Shown here piece by piece: positions 622 through 50,709 of a stretch of DNA of 64,000 nt. Source of the stretch: Mobula hypostoma (lineage: Eukaryota). Position 1 is the first letter of the stretch. Each line of letters opens with the position of its first letter. The translations under genes were made by a program, and so were the position numbers. The notes below the pieces were generated by a model. That model saw only the letters and a program-made list of their open reading frames with translations, searched no databases and was not told where the DNA came from. Location of the stretch: contig NC_086097.1 of NCBI RefSeq assembly GCF_963921235.1, positions 56,050,001-56,114,000 on the forward strand. Reading direction: 5' to 3'.

Positions 622-3606
622 TTTGCAAGGGGGATGGGACCCGGAGCAACAGAGCAGTGAAAGAAGTGCATAGAGTAAAGCCAGATCTAACATATAGGGA
701 GGCTTTGAGGAAAGAGAAGCAGAATAAAACGTGTAAAGGTAGTAAGGTAGAAGGGCTGAAGTGTGTGTACCTCAATGCAAGAAGCATCAGGGACAAAGGT
801 GATGAACTGAGAACACACATGGAATTATGATGTAGTGGCCATTACAGAGACTTGGCTGGCACCAGGGCAGGAATGGATTCTCAACATTCCTGGATTTCAG
901 TGCTTTAAAAGGGATGGGGGGGGGCGGAAGGGGAGGAGGGGTGGCATTACTGGTCAGGGGTACTATTACAGCTACAGAAAGGATGGGTAATGTAGCAGGA
1001 TCCTCTTTTGAGTCAGTATGGGTGGAAGTCAGGAACAGGAAGGGAGCAGTTACTCTATTGGGGGTATTCTATAGGCCCCCTGGTAGCAGCAGAGATACAG
1101 AGGATTAGATTGGGAGGCAGATTTTGGAAAGGTGCAGAAATAACAGGGTTGTTATCATGGGTGACTTTAACTTCCCTAATATTGATTGGCACCTGATTAG
1201 TTCCAAGGGTTTAGATGGAGCAGAGTTTGTTAGTGTGTCCAGGACGGATTCCTGTCACAGTATGTGGACAGTCCGACTAGGGGGAATGCCATACTAGATC
1301 TAGTACTAGGTAATGAACCGGGTCAGGTCACAGACCTCTCAGTGGGTGAGCATCTGGGGGACAGTGACCACCGCTCCCTGGACTTTAGCATTACCATGGA
1401 AAAGGATAGAATCAGAGAGGACAGGAAAATTTTTAATTGGGGAAGGGCAAATTATGAGGCTATAAGGCTAGAACTTGTGGGTGTGAATTGGGATGATGTT
1501 TTTGCAGGGAAATGTACTATGGACATGTGGTCGATGTTTAGAGATCTCTTGCAGGATGTTAAGGATAAATTTTTCCCGGTGAGGAAGATAAAGAATGGTA
1601 GGGTGAAGGAATCATGGGTGACAAGTGAGGTGGAAAATCTAATCAGGTGGAAGAAGGCAGCATACATGAGGTTTAGGAAGCAAGGATCAGATGGGTCTAT
1701 TGAGGAATATAGGGAAGCAAGAAAGGAGCTTAAGAAGGGGCTGAGAAGAACAAGAACGGGGCATGAGAAGGCCTTGGTGAGTAGGATAAAGGAAAACCCC
1801 AAGGCATTCTTCAGTTATGTGAAGGAAAAAAGGATGACAGGAGTGAAGGTAGGACCGATTAGAGATAAAGGTGGGAAGATGTGCCTGGAGGCTGTGGAAG
1901 TGAGCGAGGTCCACAATGAATACTTCTCTTCGGTATTCACCAATGAGAGGGAACTTGATGATGGTGAGGACAATATGAGTGAGGTTAATGTTCTGGAGCA
2001 CGTTGATATTAAGGGGGAGGAGGTATTGGAGTTGTTAAAATACATTAAGACGGATAAGTCCCCGGGGCCTGACGGAATATTCCCCAGGCTGCTCCACGAG
2101 GTGAGGGAAGAGATTGCTGAGCCTCTGGCTAGGATCTTTATGTCCTCGTTGTCCACGAGAATGGTACCGGAGGATTGGAGGGAGGCGAATGTTGTCCCCT
2201 TGTTCAAAAAAGGTAGTAAGGATAGTCTGGGTAATTATAGACCAGTGAGCCTTACATCTGTGGTGGGAAAGCTGTTGGAAAAGATTCTTAGAGATAGGAT
2301 CTGTGGGCATTTAGAGAATCATGGTCTGATCAGGGACAGTCAGCATGGCTTTGTGAAGGGCAGATCGTGTCTATAAAGCCTGATAGAGTTCTTTGAGGAG
2401 GTGACCAGGCATATAGATGAGAGTAGTGTAGTGGATGTGATCTATATGGATTTTAGTAAGGCATTTGGCAAGGTTCCACACGGTAGGCTAATTCAGAAAG
2501 TCAGAAGGCATGGGATCCAGGGAAGTGTGGCCAGGTGGATTCAGAATTGGCTTGCCTGCAGAAGGCAGAGGGTGGTGGTGGAGGGAGTACATTCAGATTG
2601 GAGGATTGTGACTAGTGGTGTCCCACAAGGATCTGTTCTGGGACCTCTACTTTTCGTGATTTTTATTAACGACCTGGATGTGGGGGTAGAAGGGTGGGTT
2701 GGCAAGTTTGAAGATGACGCAAAGGTTGGTGGTGTTGTGGATAGTGTAGAGGATTGTCCAAGATTGCAGAGAGACATTGATAGGATGCAGAAGTGGCCTG
2801 AGAAGTGGCAGATGGAGTTCAACCCAGAGAAGTGTGAGGTGGTACACTTTGGAAGGACAAACTCCAAGGCAGAGTACAAAGTAAATGGCAGGATACTTGG
2901 TAGTGTGGAGGAGCAGAGGGATCTCGGGGTACATGTCCACAAATCCCTGAAAGTTGCCTCACAGGTGGATAGGGTAGTTAAGAAAGCTTATGGGGTGTTA
3001 GCTTTCATAAGTTGAGAGACAGAGTTTAAGAGTCGCAATGTAATGATGCAGCTCTATAAAACTCTGGTTAGGCCACACTTGGAGTACTGTGTCCAGTTCT
3101 GGTCGCCTCACTATAGGAAGGATGTGGAAGCATTGGAAAGGGTACAGAGGAGATTTACCAGGATGCTGCCTGGTTTAGAGAGTATGCATTATGATCAGAG
3201 ATTAAGGGAGCTAGGGCTTTAGTCTTTGGAGAGAAGGAGGATGAAAGGAGACATGATAGAGGTGTACAAGATAATAAGAGGAATAGATAGAGTGGATAGC
3301 CAGTGCCTTTTCCCCAGGGCACCACTGCTCAATACAAGAGGACATGGCTTTAAGGTAAGGGGTGGGAAGTTCAAGGGGGATATTAGAGGAAGGTTTTTGA
3401 CTCAGAGAGTGGTTGGTGTGTGGAATGCACTGCCTGAGTCAGTGGTGGAGGCAGATACACTCGTGAAGTTTAGGAGACTACTAGACAGGTATATGGAGGA
3501 ATTTAAGGTAGGGGGTTATATGGGAGGCAGTGTTTGAGGGTCGGCACAACATTGTGGGCCGAAGGGCCTGTACTGTACTGTGCTGTACTATTCTATGTTC
3601 TATGTC
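250..3606 (+). mobile_element. CR1-clade LINE, 5'-truncated within ORF1, inactivated (family A)
   Basis: ORF1 esterase C-terminus, then APE endonuclease and RT frames, then 3' UTR with GGGCCGAAGGGCCTGT hairpin and (TTCTATG)n tail ending ~3606. Confidence 0.95.
740..3537 (+). pseudogene. CR1 ORF2 (APE endonuclease + reverse transcriptase), disrupted
   Basis: [58 protein letters not shown]; catalytic motif reads FEDD instead of FADD; stops at ~1106, ~2374, ~3013, ~3220 and frameshifts. Confidence 0.93.
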
Positions 3607-22171: not shown

Positions 22172-22737
22172 TGAAGAAAAACAGTTCCACCAGCCTTAGT
22201 AGCTAAGCCACACATGAAGGCCAGGAGCTGGACTTGGTTTTCAGAAGCTATTTGAGGTGCAGGCCATTGGGAGCATTCAGTAGGAGTTTAGTGGGAAGCT
22301 TATCCCCTCCCCCAACTATGACAACCTTCAGAAACCATTTCTACTGGCAGGAGAAGGAGCAAAGGCAGGTTAGTGGCTTCTTAAAGCCAGTCACTTCAGG
22401 CAGATGGGGCTCGTCAGCCATGATTGGCAGCTCATCCAGGAGAAGGAAAATTCTGATCTCAAACCTCCACTGCCTTGCAGCTACACCCACTCATGGGGAA
22501 TGGTGGAGTCCCTAAGGCAGTCCTACGTTGAGTTCAACGCTGATTGGCAACTCCTGCGACACCGCTGGTGCCGAGACGTATGAGTCTCTGCTGTTCCATC
22601 AGCTGCATGGAGAGGGGAAGCCTACTGCATGGGCAATAGCTCGCTCTCCACATTGTACGGCCCTGACTTGTGTATCGACTGATCTTAGACAGCTAGGATG
22701 CAACATCCATGGTCGACCCCGACTATTGGCGGCCACA
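22172..22737 (+). mobile_element. RTE-derived short non-autonomous element with inverted 5' segment
   Basis: Colinear with the reverse complement of 35315-35905 except that 22172-22331 is in the opposite orientation. Confidence 0.8.
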
Positions 22738-22774
22738 ATTTATACAGCTCCACTTTTGTATTTTCTGTACAGTA

Positions 22775-23303
22775 TACGAGGGGTGATTGATAGGTTCATG
22801 GCCTAAGGTAGAAGCAGTCAATTTTAGAAATCCTAGCAAATTTATTTTTCAACATTGTCCCCTCCTACATTTACACACTTAGTCCAGCTGCCATGGAACA
22901 TACGGATCCCTACTTTGTAGAAGTCGGCATCTTGGACTTCCAGAAAGTGGTCCACAGCAGGGGTGATTGATAAGTTCGTGGCCTAAGGAAAAAAAGGAGA
23001 TGTTATTAACTTCAAACTTTGTGCACAATCACTCAAAGAGTTGAACTGCACATGCATATAACGAGAGCTGTATAACTTATCTCCCTCTACCTTAGGCCAC
23101 GAACTTATCAATCATCCCTGCTGTGAACCACTTTCTGGAGGTCCAAGATGCCGACTTCTACAAAGTAGGGATCTATATGCTCCATGACCGCTGGACTAAG
23201 TGTGTAAATGTAGGAGGGGACAATGTTGAAAAATAAATGTGCTAGGTTTTCTAAAATTGACTCCTTCTACCTTAGGCCACAAAATTATCAATCACCCCTC
23301 ATA
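22775..23303. mobile_element. Mariner-derived foldback MITE
   Basis: TA-flanked TIR CGAGGGGTGATTGATA; ~215-230 bp inverted arms; arm encodes FYKVGIYMLHDRWTKCVNVGGDNVEK* (mariner transposase C-terminus). Confidence 0.92.
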
Positions 23304-26300
23304 TGTATACATTACAGCGCACATTTCCCGTGTTCTTTTTCCTTAAAGTATGACAACTTTGAATCCTCTTGGAATACAGTTAATACCCATGCATCAGCAT
23401 CTTCAGGACTTCGTCACATGGAACTGAAAGGAATGAACTGATTTAATGGTCTGAAACAAACTCAGTGATATGCACCAAATTTTAGAAAATTATTAAAGTT
23501 TTAAAATTTTCACTCACAGCACCTTAGAACTGTTACATAAAAATGTTAGCAACTTCATAGAATATTTGTCAAGCAATATCACTTCAGAGCAACAGCTGCC
23601 TTACCCCTGTTTAGAATATCTATTGTTAAACTTTTCTAAGTTCCTGCTTGAAATTTGCCATTAGTGTTTTCATTTGAAATAATTGTAGTTTAAGAGGAAT
23701 TAGTTTCTTAAACAATTGAAAATATACCTGAGCAAACATGGGTTTTTACAAATATCATTTTAAACGATGATGATTCTGTAGTTGCATCTCCGAAGGTAAG
23801 CATAACTTTGCACAACTCCTATTTTACTAGATTATATTCAAATTAGGTTAAGCCCTTTACTTACAATCACACATCTAAAGAATGATAATTCAGTTTACCA
23901 AAAAACTGCTTCAACATTGAACATAACAAGAGCACTTATAATCTACACGTGCAATTATTGATTATTATTAATCACTTAAAATCTGCAGAAAAAGAAGCAA
24001 TACTTATTTAAAAGTTAGTACTTGTTTCAGTTACCTGTCACCAAATTAAGCAGAGTATGTAGAGAATTATGAAAAGCCTAGTATTGTTAATTCTCTTATT
24101 AGCTGAGAAAAGGTTGAAAATGTACAAAGATAACCATAACAAGAAAACAATAATAAATATTTGAAAGAACTAATTCAAGCCCTTGTTTGTGGGAACCTTT
24201 AATGAAAATACAATTATAACAGGTTGTTGAGAGGAATGTATTAATCTGGAATAGTAATTGGTATGTTTTGATCTTGCCTGGTTCCTTTATTCACTCACAA
24301 TAGAAATATTATCAGATTACTTGTTCAAAAAGAATGTAGATTTAAAATATTATTTGCTTTTAACTTTACATAGCACAGTGATGATATTGTCACCTCATTG
24401 TTATTCGAAATACATTAATGATGCCAGTACTTCTGAATGGCATCCACAAAGCCTGTGGGAAACATTTCAGGCAGCCACTAGAGAACACCCCCACCTGCAA
24501 ATGGATGACAGCCAATTTGTTGGCTAATATTATAGCCTTCTGTCCCGTTTTCCCCCTCACTGTCTAAAGCACTGTAAGTACAACTGACAGGCCTGCCGTA
24601 CTACACAGCCAGATACTAGCATATAATGAACTTGTTGTTTGGGTACGAACAAGTCCAACCAATAGAAACCTGCATCTCAAGGCTGTCAATCACAGAGAGG
24701 GCAAGGGGCAGAGAGTTTTTTTTTTGTGACTGAGAGATGCTGCTTAGGGTGCAGGAATCTGATCTTGCTGACAAGATGCCCCTCTAAGGGATCCCTACAT
24801 TACCTAGAGCCAACAGAAAGCTTAAGTCCTGGACATGAATCTAAAACTGCTGTCAGGGAAGCCCTGTCAAAAAGCTGGCAGCTCTCCATGAAGCACAGGC
24901 CAGTCTTCCAAACCAATTCGAGTGCAGGAGGCAAAAAAATGTTTGTCACCCTTTTCACTGTATTTCCACCTTTGCCATAAAATAAAGGACTTACTTCTAA
25001 GCAGAATGTTTTCCACAGGTAAGATCAAATTTGTACATTTTATTCAAGTACATTTCATTGTATGAGTCAAAACATACATCCTTGAACATGACATTTCTCT
25101 CAACAGAAAACAGTATGAAAATTATGCAAAAAGTGTAAACCAAACAACTTCTTGGTGTTTGGGCAGAAAACTGGACATTGTAAGTGATCCTGTTGGGGAA
25201 AGTACAACCTTATCCAGTTATCCTAATTAAACAGTGGGACTTGCATATATTTGCCTTGTTTAGGAGCGTGGCCAATGTCTCCATAAATAGTGCCTTCAAT
25301 TTGTTAGCAGTTACCATTGTACAGAAAGTTATGCAAGATCTTTATAAGGGACCACAGAGAATTCAAAGACATTATTTCATTATCTAAATACTTAGGAATA
25401 CATCACATTAAGAACATTTATGGTACAGGTGTAAAGGATTAAAATTTTATGATGGTGAGGTGATAAATCTGATGAAGAAATGGGATTTACAGTATTGCTA
25501 AATTCCTGTTAATTCCACTAAAATAGATGGAGAGGGTTAAATTCATATGACATTGTACTTTTCCAGATGCAGTGTATATCATCAACCATGTATAATATGC
25601 CGTGATATTATGCAATTTAATATTTGCAGCAGACTTCAGCAATGCTAAATGCTGAGAACATATCTTTTGAGTCTTTAAAGTCTTCACAGTATCATTGTTT
25701 GTGCAGCTTTGAGATACGGCTATGCTTGTTTAAAATGTAAAAAAACTTCCATTCTGCCATGGATGTCATTCCAGTTGGATCATCTTGAATGAATCTGCTT
25801 TAATTAGAATTTTCTGCATAAAGTAAGCTCTGATTGGTGACTGCGATCATCTGTTGACACTGAAGGAGCCGACACAGCAGTCAAGCACATCTGTTACCCA
25901 GGAACCCAAGTGATCCGTTAGTGTTCAAAGAGTAGACTTGATAGTACTGCAACGGAAGAATTCTGGTTATCTTGCTTCTCGCCTGTTTGCATCATCTTTA
26001 ATTTGCCTGTTATCTACATGCACACTTTCCTTTGTATTCTTGGTTGTTTAACCCTACCAGAGAAGTTGTAATTTTTCAAAACCACGAAATTATCAAGGAC
26101 AAGATATCCTGTTAACATTAAAGGTATTTCCAAAACCAGTGGCATTTCTTGATAATGCGAATAAAAATGAGTCTGCATACATATGAGAAACATTGCCAAA
26201 TACTTCAGTGTCCAAGAACAATCTTAACCACCAGCCAAACAATGGCCATGAAAGGAATAGATTAGCACACAATCCGATGGATGTGTTCCAACTGTTCCTT

Positions 26301-33021: not shown

Positions 33022-34870
33022 ATACATAGAACATAGAATAGAATAGTACAGCACAGTACAGGCCCTTTGGTCCTCAATGTTGTGCCGACCCTCAAACCCT
33101 GCCTCCCACATAATGCCCCCACCTTAAATTCCTCCATATACCTGTCTAGTAGTCTCTTAAATTTCACTAGTGTATCTGACTCCACCGCTGACTCAGGCAG
33201 TGCATTCCACACACCAACCACTCTCTGAGTCAAAAACCTTCCTCTAATATCCCCCTTGAACTTCCCACCCCTTACCTTAAAGCCACGTCCTCTTGTATTG
33301 AGCAGTGATGCCCTGGGGAAGAGGCACTGGCTATCCACTCTATCTATTCCTCTTAATATCTTGTACACCTCTATCATGTCTCCTTTCATCCTCCTTCTCT
33401 CCAAAGACTAAAGCCCTAGCTCCCATAATCTCTGATCATAATGCATACTCTCTAAACCAGGCAGCATTCTGGTAAATCTCCTCTGTACCCTTTCCAATGC
33501 TTCCACATCCTTCCTATAGTGAGGCGATCAGAACTGGACACAGTACTCCAAGTGTGGCATAACCGGAGTTTTATAGAGCTGCATCATTACCTCGCAACTC
33601 TTAAACTCTATCCCTCGATTTATGAGAGCTAACACCCCATAGACTTTCTTAACTACCCTATCTACCTGTGAGGCAACTTTCAGGGAACTGTGGACACGTA
33701 CCCCAGATCCCTCTGCTCCTCCACACTACCAAGTATCCTGCCATTTACTTTGTACTCTGCCTTGGAGTTTGTCCTTCCAAAGTGTACCACCTCACACTTC
33801 TCAGGGTTGAACTCCATCTGCCATTTCTCAGCCCACTTCTGCATCCTATCAATGTCTCTCTGCGATCTTTGACAATCTTTACACTATCTACAACACCACC
33901 AACCTTTGTGTCGTCTGCAAACTTGCTAACCCACCCTTCTACCCCCACATCCAGGTCGTTAATAAAAATCACGAAAAGTAGAGGTCCCAGAACAGATCCT
34001 TGTGGGACACCACTAGTCACAATCCTCCAATCTGAATGTACTCTCTCCACCACCACCCTCTGCCTTCTGCAGGCAAGCCAATTCTGAATCCACCTGGCCA
34101 AACTTCCCTGGATCCCATGCCTTCTGACTTTCTGAATAAGCCTACCATGTGGAACCTTGTCAAATGCCTTACTAAATCCATATAGATCACATCCACTGCA
34201 CTACCCTCATCTATATGCCTGGTCACCTCCTCAAAGAACTCTATTAGGCTTGTAGACACGATCTGCCCTTCACAAAGCCATGCTGACTGTCCCTGATCAG
34301 ACCATGATTCTCTAAATGCCCACAGATCCTATCTCTAAGAATCTTTTCCAACAGCTTTCCCACCATAGACGTAAGGCTCACTGGTCTATAATTACCCGGA
34401 CTATCCCCACTACCTTTTTTGAACAAGGGGACAACGTTTGCCTCCCTCCAATCCTCCGATACCATTCCCGTAGACAACAAAGACATAAAGATCCTAGCCA
34501 AAGGCTCAGCAATCTCTTCCCTCGCCTCGTGGAGCAGCCTGGGGAATATTCCATCAGGCCCCGGGGACTTATCCATCCTAATTTATTTTAACAACTCCAA
34601 CACCTCCTCTCCCTTAATATCAACATGCTCCAGAATATCAACCTTACTCATATTGTCCTCACCATCATCAAGTTCCCTCTCATTGGTGAATACCGAAGAG
34701 AAGTATTCATTGTGGACCTCGCTCACTTCCACAGCCTCCAGGCACATCTTCCCACCCTTATCTCTAATTGGCCCTACCTTCACTCCTGTCATCCTTTTGT
34801 TCTCCACATAATTGAAGAATGCCTTGGGGTTTTCCTTTACCTTACTCGCCAAGGCCTTCTCATGCCCCCT
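33022..34870 (-). mobile_element. CR1 LINE family A, 5'-truncated, frameshifted
   Basis: Near-identical reverse complement of ~1760-3606; FADD intact here; (CATAGAA)n tail at left end. Confidence 0.95.
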
Positions 34871-35314
34871 CCTTGGGAAAGACAAAGAAATATTATCAGA
34901 GAACACATAACCTTCATAAAGGGAAAGTCAGGAAAGATGACAAAACTTTCGTGAAAAGTTGAGTTCAGAAACATCTGGAGTAAAAGCAGGCCACTAAATT
35001 AGATAACGACAGATCTGCACATTTAATCAATTTCCCTTTTTAGATCTATATTGTTTGACAAAGTTACCTCATGAAAATCTTAGTCCCAAAATTCTATCTG
35101 TCTAACAATCAGCCTCTAGTCAATCAACCGCAGATCTGCTACTTTTGAAATCAAACATGAAGATATGTGTAATTTCTCACATAATCATTCTGAAATAAAT
35201 CCTTAGTCAAATACTCCAGAATGACAATCCTATCTATTTGGTGAAACAGCACTGTAGTAGCAGTTAATCTTTGTCAATAGTTATATTAGTATTGTCTAAT
35301 TCATTGTTACATAC

Positions 35315-35905
35315 AGTAGCAGTAGGCAGCCGTCAATCCCAGGGGAACATGGGTTTGTGCTGCTGGTGGACTGTGTCCTCTCCAGGGCGCAAGCCTGGGC
35401 GGGAAGATTTGAAGAACCGACTGTTGCCCATTGCAGCATGTTCCCCCTCTCAACGTCACTGATGTAGTCCAAGGGAAGGGCAAGCACCGATACAGCTTGG
35501 CACCAGTGTCGTCACAGAGACTGCCAGAGTGAAGTTGTAAACAATATCAAACTGCCTTAGGGACCCCGGCTTGGATTCCTTCCTCGAGGTTTACTCCCGA
35601 AGCCTTTCCCATGGTGGGTATGGTCGCAAGGCAGCGGAGGGTTAAAATCAGAGTGTTCCTTTTACTAGGCGGGCTGCCGTCCAAGGCTGACAAGCCCCAC
35701 CTGTCCAAAGCAACTGGTTTTGAGGCGCCAGTGGTCCGCCTTTGCCCCTTCTCTTGTCAGTAAAAACAGTTCCTTCAGGCCGAGTAGCTAAGTCACATGT
35801 GAAGGCCAAGAACTGGACTTGGTTGTCACAGGCTGTTAGTGACACACTTTATAGGTAGTGGGAGCTTATCCCCACTACCACCCCGGCTCTGACAACCTTC
35901 GGAAG
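35315..35905 (-). mobile_element. RTE-derived short non-autonomous element with structured 5' head
   Basis: No coding homology; related to 22172-22737; shares GGAGTAAACC..AATCC..CCC(T/C)AAGG block with 61545-62101; short tandem tail. Confidence 0.75.
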
Positions 35906-36615
35906 CAACATCGAGTAAGATTTATACTATTCTATCAATGCTAGGCACCAAGCTGACCTCATTTTTTTCAGTTGAAATACTTCCATTGATATTGTCTCAC
36001 AATATTTTATATAATGGGATAAAGTCTTTATGTTATCTAACTACTAAAATATAAAGTGTGTAGGACTACCAAAAAGATGTAGTTCATATACAAAGCAATT
36101 TTTCTTCCAATCCACATGGTTAGAAGTTGGCAGGCGATGATCTTAAACTTATTGAGCAAAGAGTCTTGTTTAAAGCACAAAATACCAATCAATCATTGCT
36201 TAAAACAGATTATCACTGGATATGTTCATGTGAGCTTAACTAAGCAGAATAACCTAAGCTTTCAATGCAAATATATGTTTAAACTTTGACAGCTATCATG
36301 CTGTTCCCCTTGAATAAATAACTTGCTAAGCTCTCTGTTTCCTCTTGTGTCTGCAATGTGGAAGTTAGCGCAGATTATTGGGACATCTGTCTTCAGCTCC
36401 AGTGCAACCTTGTCTGAAACCTAGAGCCTCCCAAACTCAGCTCACTTGCTTTTTTCTTCTTCCAGCAACCTTTTAAAAGATGACAAAAAGATGTCCCTAA
36501 TCATTAGTTTTTGGTTTATCTCAATTTTACTCTGGTCTAGATTGATGGTTCTAAGATTCAGACCCAACACCACTGAAGGACTGGTGATATATTTCCAAGT
36601 CAGGATGGTGTGTAA

Positions 36616-45084: not shown

Positions 45085-45491
45085 ATCAGAGATTAAGGGA
45101 GCTAGGGCTTTACTCTTTGGAGAGAAGGAGGATGAGAGGAGACATGATAGAGGTATACAAGATATTAAGAGGAATAGACAGAGTGGATAGCCAGCACCTC
45201 TTCCCCAGGGCACCACTGCTCAATACAAGAGGACATGGCTTTAAGGTAAGGAATGGGAAGTTCAAGGGGGATATTAGAGGAAGGTTTTTTACTCAGAGAG
45301 TGGTTGGTGCGTGGAATACACTGCCTGAGTCTGTGGTGGAGGCAGATACACTAGTGAAATTTAAGAGACTACTAGACAGGTATATGGAGGAATTTAAGGT
45401 GGGGGGTTATATGGGAGGCAGGGTTTGAGGGTCGGCACAACAATGTGGGCCAAAGGGTCTGTACTGTGCTGTACTATTCTATGTTCTATGT
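45085..45491 (+). mobile_element. CR1 family A 3' fragment
   Basis: Near-identical to 3194-3605; TTCTATGTTCTATGT tail. Confidence 0.95.
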
Positions 45492-47850: not shown

Positions 47851-49109
47851 CAGGCATTCTACATAAACAGATATACGTTTCTGAATTTGGTGACGTGAGG
47901 TAGATACTGCTGGAGAGGTCATTTATTGTTTAGCTTTAATTTTTGACAGAACTGAGCAGTTTGCTGAGACATTTTATACAGAGTTGAGAATCTTTGATGA
48001 TTTTGAAGTTACAGATGAACAGGCTTTGTAAGAATGGCAAATACCCTTTCTGAAAATATATTAGTGAAACAGGTAGTTTATCCAGTAGTTGCATGATTAA
48101 AATAGTTCCATTAAAAAATGTATATTTGAAGTTAAGTGTCCCTGTTGTCATGGCAGGACTTCATTGTATCTCTTTGAATCAGAAGTCCAAACTTTTCAAT
48201 ACTAGTCCAATAATTTTCTTGATATGCTGCTGTACCATGATCTATGTCAATGATCTGTGAATATCTACAAATGTAAATCAATTACATTAAACATACTTAG
48301 ATTGATTAATCCTTTATCCAAGAGTAATATTAGACATCTTATACAGTGACAGAATCCTGTCGGTAATGGAAAATGTGAAAACTGAACCACATTTATATAC
48401 TAAAGCCCATCATCATGATAATTAGGATTCAATGTCTTAAATTATGTGCTAATTATTTTTAATTGCAAAATATCATGGGAGGATTATGTGTAACCACCTC
48501 TAACCTTGGACACTGTAATGTCATACAATATGTAACATCTGTGACTCCTCCCTTAATTATTTGTATAATGAGTTTGAACTGTTTCATGCAGCTTCAGCTG
48601 GGAACAAGCGTCAACCAGTCAAATAACCCAGAATATGGCTAAATAGTATCAAGAAAAAAAATAACAAGGCATTGGACTGAAATGGTGATTGTGATTTTTC
48701 AATGGTACCCCTGTAAATCAATGTGCCACTGAGTGGAATAGTTCTGTCTGAAAGTAGAAGTAATGTATAGACAGGGTGAGCTGTGCAGCATTTATTGGTT
48801 AAACACACTTGCTTGTGCATAGACTTTGGTTATCAACGTTCCTTCATATTCCCCAGGCTCTGAGGGGTAGGTGGTGCTACGAGTTGGAGAATATAGCAGC
48901 AAAATGCAAGTTCTAATTGCTTAGATTTCCAGCTGCACACTGTGGTGAGTTTACAAGCTCTCTAAACACAGAAAAAAAGGAACAAAATGACAAACAATCT
49001 TCTGGTATACAAAACAACAGGAATTCTGCAGATGCTGGAAATTCAAGCAACACACATCAAAGTTGCTGGTGAACGCAGCAGGCCAAGCAGCATCTGTAGG
49101 AAGAGGTGC

Positions 49110-49145
49110 AGTCGACGTTTCAGGCCGAGACCCTTCGTCAGGACT
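49110..49145 (-). ncRNA. Minimal type I hammerhead ribozyme (PLE type), core intact
   Basis: AGUC-CUGACGA-AGG(GUCUCGG)CCU-GAA-ACGU-C^GACU: stem I AGUC/GACU, stem II AGG/CCU, palindromic ACGU in place of stem III. Confidence 0.85.
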
Positions 49146-49903
49146 AACTGAAGGAAGAGTGAGTAAGGGATTTGAAAGTTGGAGGGGGAGGGGGAGATCC
49201 AAAATGATAGGAGAAGACAGGAGGGGGAGGGATGGAGCTAAGAGCTGGACAGGTGATAGGCAAAAGGGGATACGAGAGGATCATGGGACAGGAGGTCCGG
49301 GAAGAAAGACAGGCGGGGGGGTGGAGGACCCAGAGGATGGGCAAGAGGTATATTCAGAGGGACAGAGGGAGAAAAAGGAGAGTGAGAGAAAGAATGTGTG
49401 CATAAAAATGAGTAACAGATGGGGTACGAGGGGGAGGTGGGGCCTTAGCAGAAGTTAGAGAAGTCGATGTTCATGCCATCAGGTTGGAGGCTACCCAGAC
49501 GGAAGATAAGGTGTTGTTCCTCCAACCTGAGTGTGGCTTCATCTTTGCAGTAGAGGAGGCCGTGGATAGACATGTCAGAATGGGAATGGGATGTGGAATT
49601 AAAATGTGTGGCCACTGGGAGATCCTCGTACCCCATCTGTTACTCATTTTTATGCACACATTCTTTCTCTCACTCTCCTTTTTCTCCCTCTGTCCCTCTG
49701 AATATACCTCTTGCCCATCCTCTGGGGCCCCCCCCCTTGTCTTTCTTCCCGGACCTCCTGTCCCATTATCCTCTCGTATCCCGTTTTGCCTATCACCTGT
49801 CCAGCTCTTGGCTCTATCCCTCCCCCTCCTGTCTTCTCCTATCATTTTGGATCTCCCCCTCCCCCTCCAACTTTCAAATCCCTTACTCACTCTTCCTTCA
49901 GTT

Positions 49904-49939
49904 AGTCCTGACGAAGGGTCTCGGCCTGAAATGTCAACT
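49904..49939 (+). ncRNA. Hammerhead ribozyme copy with two CpG-type substitutions
   Basis: AGTCCTGACGAAGGGTCTCGGCCTGAAATGTCAACT (ACGT>ATGT, GACT>AACT). Confidence 0.7.
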
Positions 49940-50709
49940 GCACCTCTTCCTACAGATGCTGCTTGGCCTGCTGCGTTCACCAGCAACTTTGATGTGTGTT
50001 TCTGGTATACAAACCATTTTGCCTCTCACACTGTTGAAAATAACAATATAATTTGCATTTATGTAGCACATTCACTATGGTAATATTTCCAAAGAGCATT
50101 ATTGTCACTGAACCACAGAATGAACGAACAGGACAAACAACCAAAGGTTTTAGTCAGAGGTCAATTTCAATGAGCTCTTCCAAAGAGGAGAAGGAATTAG
50201 TTGTAAAGGAATACAGAGAGAATCCTAGAGCTTAGGAGGCCAAGAAGCTGAAAACACGTTGCTAAAGATGTACGGAATAAACCCGGAGATGCAAAGATGG
50301 AAGAATTTGATAAACAGAAGGATCATAAATGTTTACAGAGGTGGAGAAGATTACAGAGATTAAATCAGATCTCTGTCAATTTTTGCCTTTGATCCATAAC
50401 CACGATACCCTTAACAGGCTATTTTCCAGTGACCTCAGCTTTAAATTGTTAAATTGACTCTCAATTGATACAGCCACCTGAGGGAGAGAGGTCCATATTT
50501 CTACTATCCATTGTGCGAAAAGCAATCATTCTCAATTGTGTACCTTGATGGCCTAACTCTAAGTGATGTATTAAGACAGATCTTCATCCATTTGCTGTTG
50601 AGTCGTGTTCTTACTTCTAGTGTGGAGCTGGGAAAAACTTTGTAAACTACTACCTGTGCAAGTTGAATCTGGCGCCCAGGCATCACAGCTTGAATCTGGC
50701 AGTGGGGAC

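Follow-up and report, generated by a model that had tools for sequence, protein, structure and literature searches.

What kind of RNA stands at the head of the repeated element on the minus strand of a 64,000-nucleotide stretch of the Mobula hypostoma genome (the window), and where in its fold does an unusual extra hairpin lie? The original prediction for this locus was of an HDV-like fold heading an RTE-type element, with a hairpin placed as a linker between P3 and P1. The fold, the kind of element and the oddity of the inserted hairpin are upheld, but the position given to the hairpin and the strands given to P1 are not. We propose that the first ~170 nt form an HDV-like double pseudoknot with the hairpin inside L3, and that this RNA would probably self-cleave at its first base, freeing the element RNA (we put the probability at about 0.72). 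That ribozymes define the 5′ ends of RTE elements is general biology which is already known.

A very common element with a worn copy in the window

35316-35906, minus strand: whole element, subfamily A; ORF-less, about 590-600 nt, with a (TAC)n tail
22179-22336, minus strand: the other copy (subfamily B), 5′ portion in inverted orientation (element nt 1-159)
22333-22734, plus strand: the other copy (subfamily B), portion in forward orientation (element nt 152-587), containing J4/2 and the 3′ strand of P2

The window element is a worn front-end copy of a very common jumping element. Searching its own genome (3.48 Gb) with it gave 3,752 first-look candidates; an 18-mer taken from the element has 3,582 exact occurrences, which sets a lower bound on copy number. 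The window copy belongs to subfamily A (73 distinct loci, median 92% identity to the majority) and the copy at 22.2 kb to subfamily B (94 distinct loci, median 84%); subfamily C (27 distinct loci, median 96%) is ~73-80% related to A and B. A more distant family, E (30 loci, 87% identity; L139:1146-1790, L218-L246 and L322-L351), is a ~580-nt element with a (CAT)n tail. A putative ‘subfamily D’ of 2 loci looks like decayed A/B and was set aside. Copies decay neutrally, chiefly at CpG, so that only contrasts between family majorities are informative about selection. Contigs of four other organisms (X1, X2, X5, X7) carry elements related along their whole length, ribozyme region included. Separately, a metagenome scan gave 15 matches, all 15 of them rejected as GC-rich chance hits that have no P1 5′ strand upstream.

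The window copy (35906-35316, minus) is ~90% identical to its own family majority, and its lesions are G2>C, G25>A, two mismatches in the extra hairpin, P3′ GGC>GAA and a 14-nt deletion in J1/2. As P3′, G25 and one P1 pair are lost, it is likely dead as a ribozyme. The Rfam models of the HDV clan matched nothing in the window or in a better-preserved copy; the long J1/2, the L3 insert and the missing P4 are expected to defeat such models.

The letters on which the prediction was built are found exactly as quoted, on the minus strand at 35812-35751. Its comparison with the 22.2-kb copy does not hold, as the string quoted there spans opposite strands: ‘CTGG CAGGAG’ lies on the strand opposite to that copy's P2 5′ side because the copy is 5′-inverted. 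Within this copy (22179-22734) there is an 8-nt overlap where the inverted 5′ part breaks, and we take the shape of the break to be that of L1 twin priming, here in an RTE-type element. A long inverted repeat (22774-23304; arms of 233 nt at 90%) follows directly, and another is found at 49041-50008 (arms of 281+113 nt at 96-97%). Young LINE fragments at 33024-34875, 1751-3605 and 45085-45488, presumably CR1-like, are 94-97% alike and in inverted orientation, one of them lying 440 nt downstream of the element.

P1 begins at the first base of the element

35901-35906, minus strand: P1 5′ strand, the element's first six bases; second base G>C in the window copy
35768-35773, minus strand: P1 3′ strand (GGAACT), directly after the 3′ strand of P3

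The motif GCCGGG, previously proposed as the 5′ strand of P1, is present at 35887-35882 (minus), but full-length copies start at GGYUCC, 19-20 nt upstream of it, and from the sequence P1 is a 6-bp helix of nt 1-6 with GGARCY. For mapping of 5′ ends, 88 loci were chosen by their 3′ end or a middle motif and one family-E locus was set aside, leaving 87 unselected A/B copies (one pair among them, L162/L167, looks duplicated). Forty-four of these start at nt 1-5, 19 near nt 212 and 24 elsewhere, and none of the 87 starts within 3 nt of nt 20, the start of GCCGGG. In family E, 17 of the 30 copies selected through their 3′ end begin at nt 1-3. Of 67 copies whose starts are intact, 9 have strict target-site duplications (TSDs), six adjoining G1 and three being one base off; a swapped-flank control gave 0/67. 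The base at -1 is G in 4 of these 67 copies; lack of an extra G is what is expected of uncapped RNA. The predicted cleavage site is just 5′ of 35906.

The first six bases and GGARCY do form a consensus P1, with covariation across the subfamilies. Pair 3 is U-A in 50/55 A and 57/73 B copies, and in C (n=26) is C-G in 18 and U.G in 6; pair 1, mostly G-C in B, is G.U in the other two subfamilies; and P1 of family E has three further two-sided changes. A P1 of 6-7 bp starting from G1, with such covariation behind it, is as expected of HDV-like ribozymes. Nested folding of the majorities gives this P1 a probability of 0.62-0.97 in A and B, and 0.2 in C. The helix built on GCCGGG was 77% paired, with no two-sided change, in 24 A and C copies (18 cells falling on gaps), and it has A.C at pair 5 in 25/27 and at pair 6 in 23/27 C copies. 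Its weakness in both window copies, remarked on at the outset, is partly CpG decay, but the fault at the family level is that of subfamily C. An extension of P1 through the insert and J1/2 was dropped after P1 had been reassigned.

The extra hairpin probably lies in L3

35804-35806, minus strand: P3 5′ strand (GCC)
35797-35803, minus strand: conserved L3 heptamer, UUCACGU in the family; G25 is A in the window copy
35777-35796, minus strand: 20-nt L3 insertion, absent from family E: a 7-bp hairpin closed by a 3-nt loop (35794-35778), with two bases before it and one after
35774-35776, minus strand: P3 3′ strand, GGC in the family; GAA in the window copy

The inserted hairpin runs from the first GGC to GCC and has 7 bp, not the 4-5 bp first described. 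P3′ is the second GGC, immediately before GGARCY, and P3 and P1 are therefore adjacent, as in canonical folds. L3 is UUCACGU plus 20 nt, or 27 nt, in A, B and C, and 7 nt in E; the L3 of 7-8 nt found in CPEB3 and HDV is thus not that of A, B and C, in which the long loop is a variant feature. It is family E that fixes the register, as it holds the same core without the insert: its 5′-end GGGGAC pairs with GUCCCU, which stands after GCC-UUCACGU-GGY and before GU-N5-CUGA. A genome search for an insert-free form keeping the A/B downstream bases had a deletion copy as its sole match. A core pattern in which the L3 gap was left free gave 712 exact genome matches, against 25 for the reversed control, and recovers both the insert-bearing and the insert-free forms.

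Pairs were counted in 24 copies, the 12 best A of 33 and the 12 best C of 16 full-head copies, subfamily B being left out because its 5′ ends are displaced by one column in the alignment. Under the new structure 98.5% of cells pair, compared with 92.5% under the structure first proposed and 37-52% under slid controls, and three pairs show two-sided change. All 22 pairs form in the majorities of A, B and C. Between the subfamilies there is one two-sided change each in P1, P2 and the extra hairpin, pair 4 of which is U.G in 55/58 A, U-A in 81/86 B and A-U in 31/32 C copies; as copy counts are not independent, the covariation amounts to three events (not 32) among A, B and C, together with one distant family. 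Placing the hairpin as a P3-P1 linker fails on covariation, 5′-end mapping, folding and the insert-free relative E. We hold it as very probable, from these pairings, that the core register is canonical and that the hairpin is inside L3.

No covariation was found in P3, P1.1, L3 or J4/2, which are invariant in the copies compared, and nested folding gives P3 a probability of 0.01 or less in either register. As they are invariant, and P3 is unpredicted by nested folding, P3, P1.1 and J4/2 are assigned from where they lie and from their resemblance to known cores.

P2, J1/2 and the predicted catalytic region

35807-35812, minus strand: P2 5′ strand
35813-35900, minus strand: J1/2 structured domain; closing helix 35897-35890 with 35828-35821 (P1.2-like), predicted pairing
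35879-35854, minus strand: J1/2 inner hairpin, predicted
35761-35767, minus strand: G-U plus a 5-nt joiner replacing P4; the G-U are predicted P1.1 partners of C22 and U21 of L3
35757-35760, minus strand: J4/2 CUGA, predicted catalytic C at 35760
35751-35756, minus strand: P2 3′ strand

The earlier report of a compensatory switch in P2 describes a real subfamily difference, the pair being U-A in 52/56 A and C-G in 77/85 B and 31/32 C copies, but one that is a single evolutionary event. Family E needs a one-base bulge in P2. The strands of the stem closing J1/2, GGTTGTCA (35897-35890) and TGACAACC (35828-35821), are present as claimed; GCCGGG sits inside J1/2 and, on folding, pairs within J1/2 in subfamily C.

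P2, the strand on the 5′ side of P3, the point where L3 begins and the predicted catalytic C at 35760 keep the places first assigned to them. The core order is the same in A, B, C and E and is that of the HDV-like double pseudoknot, P1-P2-P3-L3-P3′-P1′-P1.1-(P4)-J4/2-P2′, with P3′ adjoining P1′, and family E has it without the insert. The J4/2 C is kept in 55/55 A, 71/75 B, 26/27 C and 28/30 E copies, and both CUGA (C then N-R-A) and UUCACG (with U20 and G25) are in the majority in all four families, as is looked for in HDV-like ribozymes. P1.1 could form as C-G plus U.U in all four families, its bases being invariant; it would be a one-pair, CPEB3-like P1.1, and P4 appears to be absent.

A partner LINE for subfamily C

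A search for LINE partners, covering subfamily C, began from one C copy that keeps a short C-terminal Cys/His motif before its 3′ end. Of 15 stretches fetched with this motif, two are full-length 4.03-kb elements; both are flanked by TSDs and share the G1 start, and they are 93-94% identical to C across nt 1-548. Their endonuclease (PF14529, 1e-07) and RT (PF00078, 8e-27) domains lie in broken frames. Both also carry U.G at P1 pair 3, the expected intermediate. Subfamily C thus shares both its 5′ 548 nt and its 3′ end with a 4-kb LINE and has the make-up of a bipartite element: the two ends of an APE+RT LINE, TSDs and a short-repeat tail. We assume the RTE label from the single APE-RT frame, the C-terminal Cys/His motif and the 5′-UTR domain described below. 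An extension of locus L106, considered as a partner ORF, proved to be unrelated repeat sequence. Some C copies (L107:990-1300, L099, L109) join the LINE 5′ and 3′ parts at differing points, one of them keeping the Cys/His motif, and these varied joins suggest repeated internal deletion.

A second 5′ end

35709-35740, minus strand: predicted H-type pseudoknot (35740-35713) and, 3 nt on, 5′-end hot spot at 35709 (nt 212); stems invariant
35635-35706, minus strand: conserved structured 5′-UTR domain common to all four families and present twice in E

In subfamilies A and B there is, besides the long form, a short one with a precise start and no ribozyme: it is this that starts at the hot spot in 19 of the 87 unselected copies. 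The start lies no more than about two bases from nt 212 in thirteen inspected A copies, and a few bases from it at most in nine B copies (loci with this start include L062, L066, L072, L081, L083-L086, L158, L160, L161 and L177). Nearly all differences between the majority sequences of the two forms are at CpG sites. The pseudoknot, read from the sequence, is predicted in A, B and C and not in E; in E a start of this type was seen in 1/30 copies, even though the downstream conserved domain is there twice. A pseudoknot 3 nt upstream of nt 212 would fit a block to reverse transcription; the ends may instead come from a second cleavage or an internal start. Comparison with hatchet-, pistol- and hammerhead-like ribozymes gave no convincing match for a second ribozyme at nt 212.

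The domain that follows (35706-35635) is probably, we assume, the RTE domain of Kojima 2018. Two of its stems, a long one and a short one that has tandem G.A pairs at its flanks, show two-sided subfamily changes, and a pseudoknot of 3 bp may also form.

Proposed mechanism and alternatives

We propose that the source elements would self-cleave 5′ of G1, a reading to which the probability given at the start also applies. C75, acting as general acid with Mg2+, would make the cut, freeing an uncapped element RNA from read-through host transcripts, and this RNA would be copied by the partner LINE through target-primed reverse transcription. The ~100-nt J1/2 domain may pinch P1 and P2 together, as in drz-Agam-2, and the 7-bp hairpin would leave L3 on its 3′ side, just past G25-U26, project outwards from the core and be tolerated. 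Against this, an internal promoter at nt 1 would yield the same 5′ ends; a 20-nt insertion beside G25.U20 could slow or kill the reaction; and so could each of the one-pair P1.1, the lack of P4 and the 8-nt linker before P2.

These points feed an unlikely alternative, that the fold is right and the RNA slow or inactive (owing to the L3 insert, weak P1.1 and lack of P4). An internal Pol II promoter would then give the nt-1 ends, and the pairs would be kept for protein binding, RNA protection or translation. That P3 is unpredicted absent tertiary contacts is in keeping with it, and the L1Tc first 77 nt are described in PMC3383444 as promoter and ribozyme at once. However, the catalytic C and CUGA are identical in four families while neighbouring bases change, and non-canonical P1.1 pairs are compatible with fast cleavage in other members (PMC13635239). 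A cap-derived G at -1 in just 4/67 copies also speaks against a promoter, weakly, as RT may not copy caps.

It seems improbable, considerably more so than an inactive fold, that the insertion is a folding switch, in which the first GGC would hold the P3 5′ strand in an inactive state until the hairpin formed and P3 passed to the second GGC, and would in this way set how fast cleavage runs. Neither GGC triplet varies in A, B and C, each can pair with GCC, and four pairs of the GCCGGG helix are still possible in all three. Invariance across three close subfamilies is weak evidence, however; a local duplication would likewise leave a duplicated GGC; and nested folding gives the hairpin 0.68 in C and 0.99 in the two other subfamilies, against 0.0 for the alternative P3. 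The model first proposed, of GCCGGG (nt 20-25) pairing with CCCGGC, a hairpin linking P3 to P1 and a cut at nt 20, can be discounted almost entirely, as although the A and B majorities give it six perfect pairs followed by GG, it meets the A.C oppositions in C and the lack of starts at nt 20 given above, a P1 probability of 0.0 in all three subfamilies, a penalty of 7.5-9.4 kcal/mol when folds are constrained to it, and a family E with no such helix at that place.

Implications

Known HDV-like ribozymes vary in J1/2 and P4, and L3, which is part of the active site, has been treated as short. Beyond the proposed self-cleaving double pseudoknot itself, we would tentatively suggest a wider picture, for which the odds are somewhat short of even: an active HDV-like ribozyme with a covarying L3 helix and no P4, having a plain-loop sister family, such that L3 is an unrecognised insertion site missed by fixed-length searches; and a pseudoknot that sets a second sharp 5′ end, so that one source RNA gives rise to both ribozyme-headed and headless copies. 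If true, a natural L3 helix kept by compensatory change in a LINE that had not yet stopped transposing would widen the definition of the family and would explain why covariance models miss such elements. It would also offer, near the active site, a new graft site for aptamers or protein-binding tags. Family E is a natural control for the core with and without the insert.

Comparison with known systems

Non-LTR retrotransposons, RTE elements among them, are known to carry HDV-like ribozymes at their 5′ ends (Ruminski et al. 2011, as cited in PMC5786205, PMC6765202 and PMC3774820), and promoter-independent release is the role proposed for them. According to PMC3774820, P1 is 6-7 bp in R2, P4 may be too short to form, and RTE ribozymes cut at the 5′ junction. 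As in these retrotransposon ribozymes, our fold runs from the element's first base, and its 6-bp P1 is within the R2 range; it differs in having a 20-nt helical L3 insertion and no P4, and its activity is a prediction. In the literature available in part to us we found no natural HDV-like ribozyme with an L3 helix, and the figures of Ruminski 2011 and of Webb and Luptak 2011 could show one.

Our elements and drz-Agam-2-1 (PMC4908430) both have a large, structured J1/2 in which a P1.2 helix, lying between P1 and P2, closes the domain; Agam-2 has a P2 of 12 bp, whereas here P2 is 6 bp (a short extension being possible) and the L3 helix is extra. The minimal HDV-like and theta ribozymes also lack a P4 domain (PMC10879173), but these are small phage RNAs with a short J1/2, whereas ours is ~170 nt and from an animal retroelement.

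As regards the elements as a whole, PMC5786205 describes bipartite RTE elements, RTE ribozymes and a conserved 5′-UTR domain; the RTE-N families, RTESINE and Bov-A there join a LINE 5′ part to a 3′ end with no tRNA head, as is found here. The difference is that A and B have a precise short form that lacks the ribozyme.

The core also resembles that of CPEB3 (10.1101/2022.09.22.508989), which has the same L3 start (U20-U21-C22-A23-C24-G25-U26) with its ACGU palindrome, known to drive dimer formation in CPEB3 crystals, and whose P1.1 consists of a single G-C pair plus a putative U-U. In our elements the palindrome falls within L3 (window positions 35801-35797), and the inserted helix might block or alter CPEB3-like dimers. 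CPEB3 differs in that it has P4, its J1/2 is short, its L3 carries no insertion and it is a single intronic copy; the 7-nt loop of family E matches its L3 exactly.
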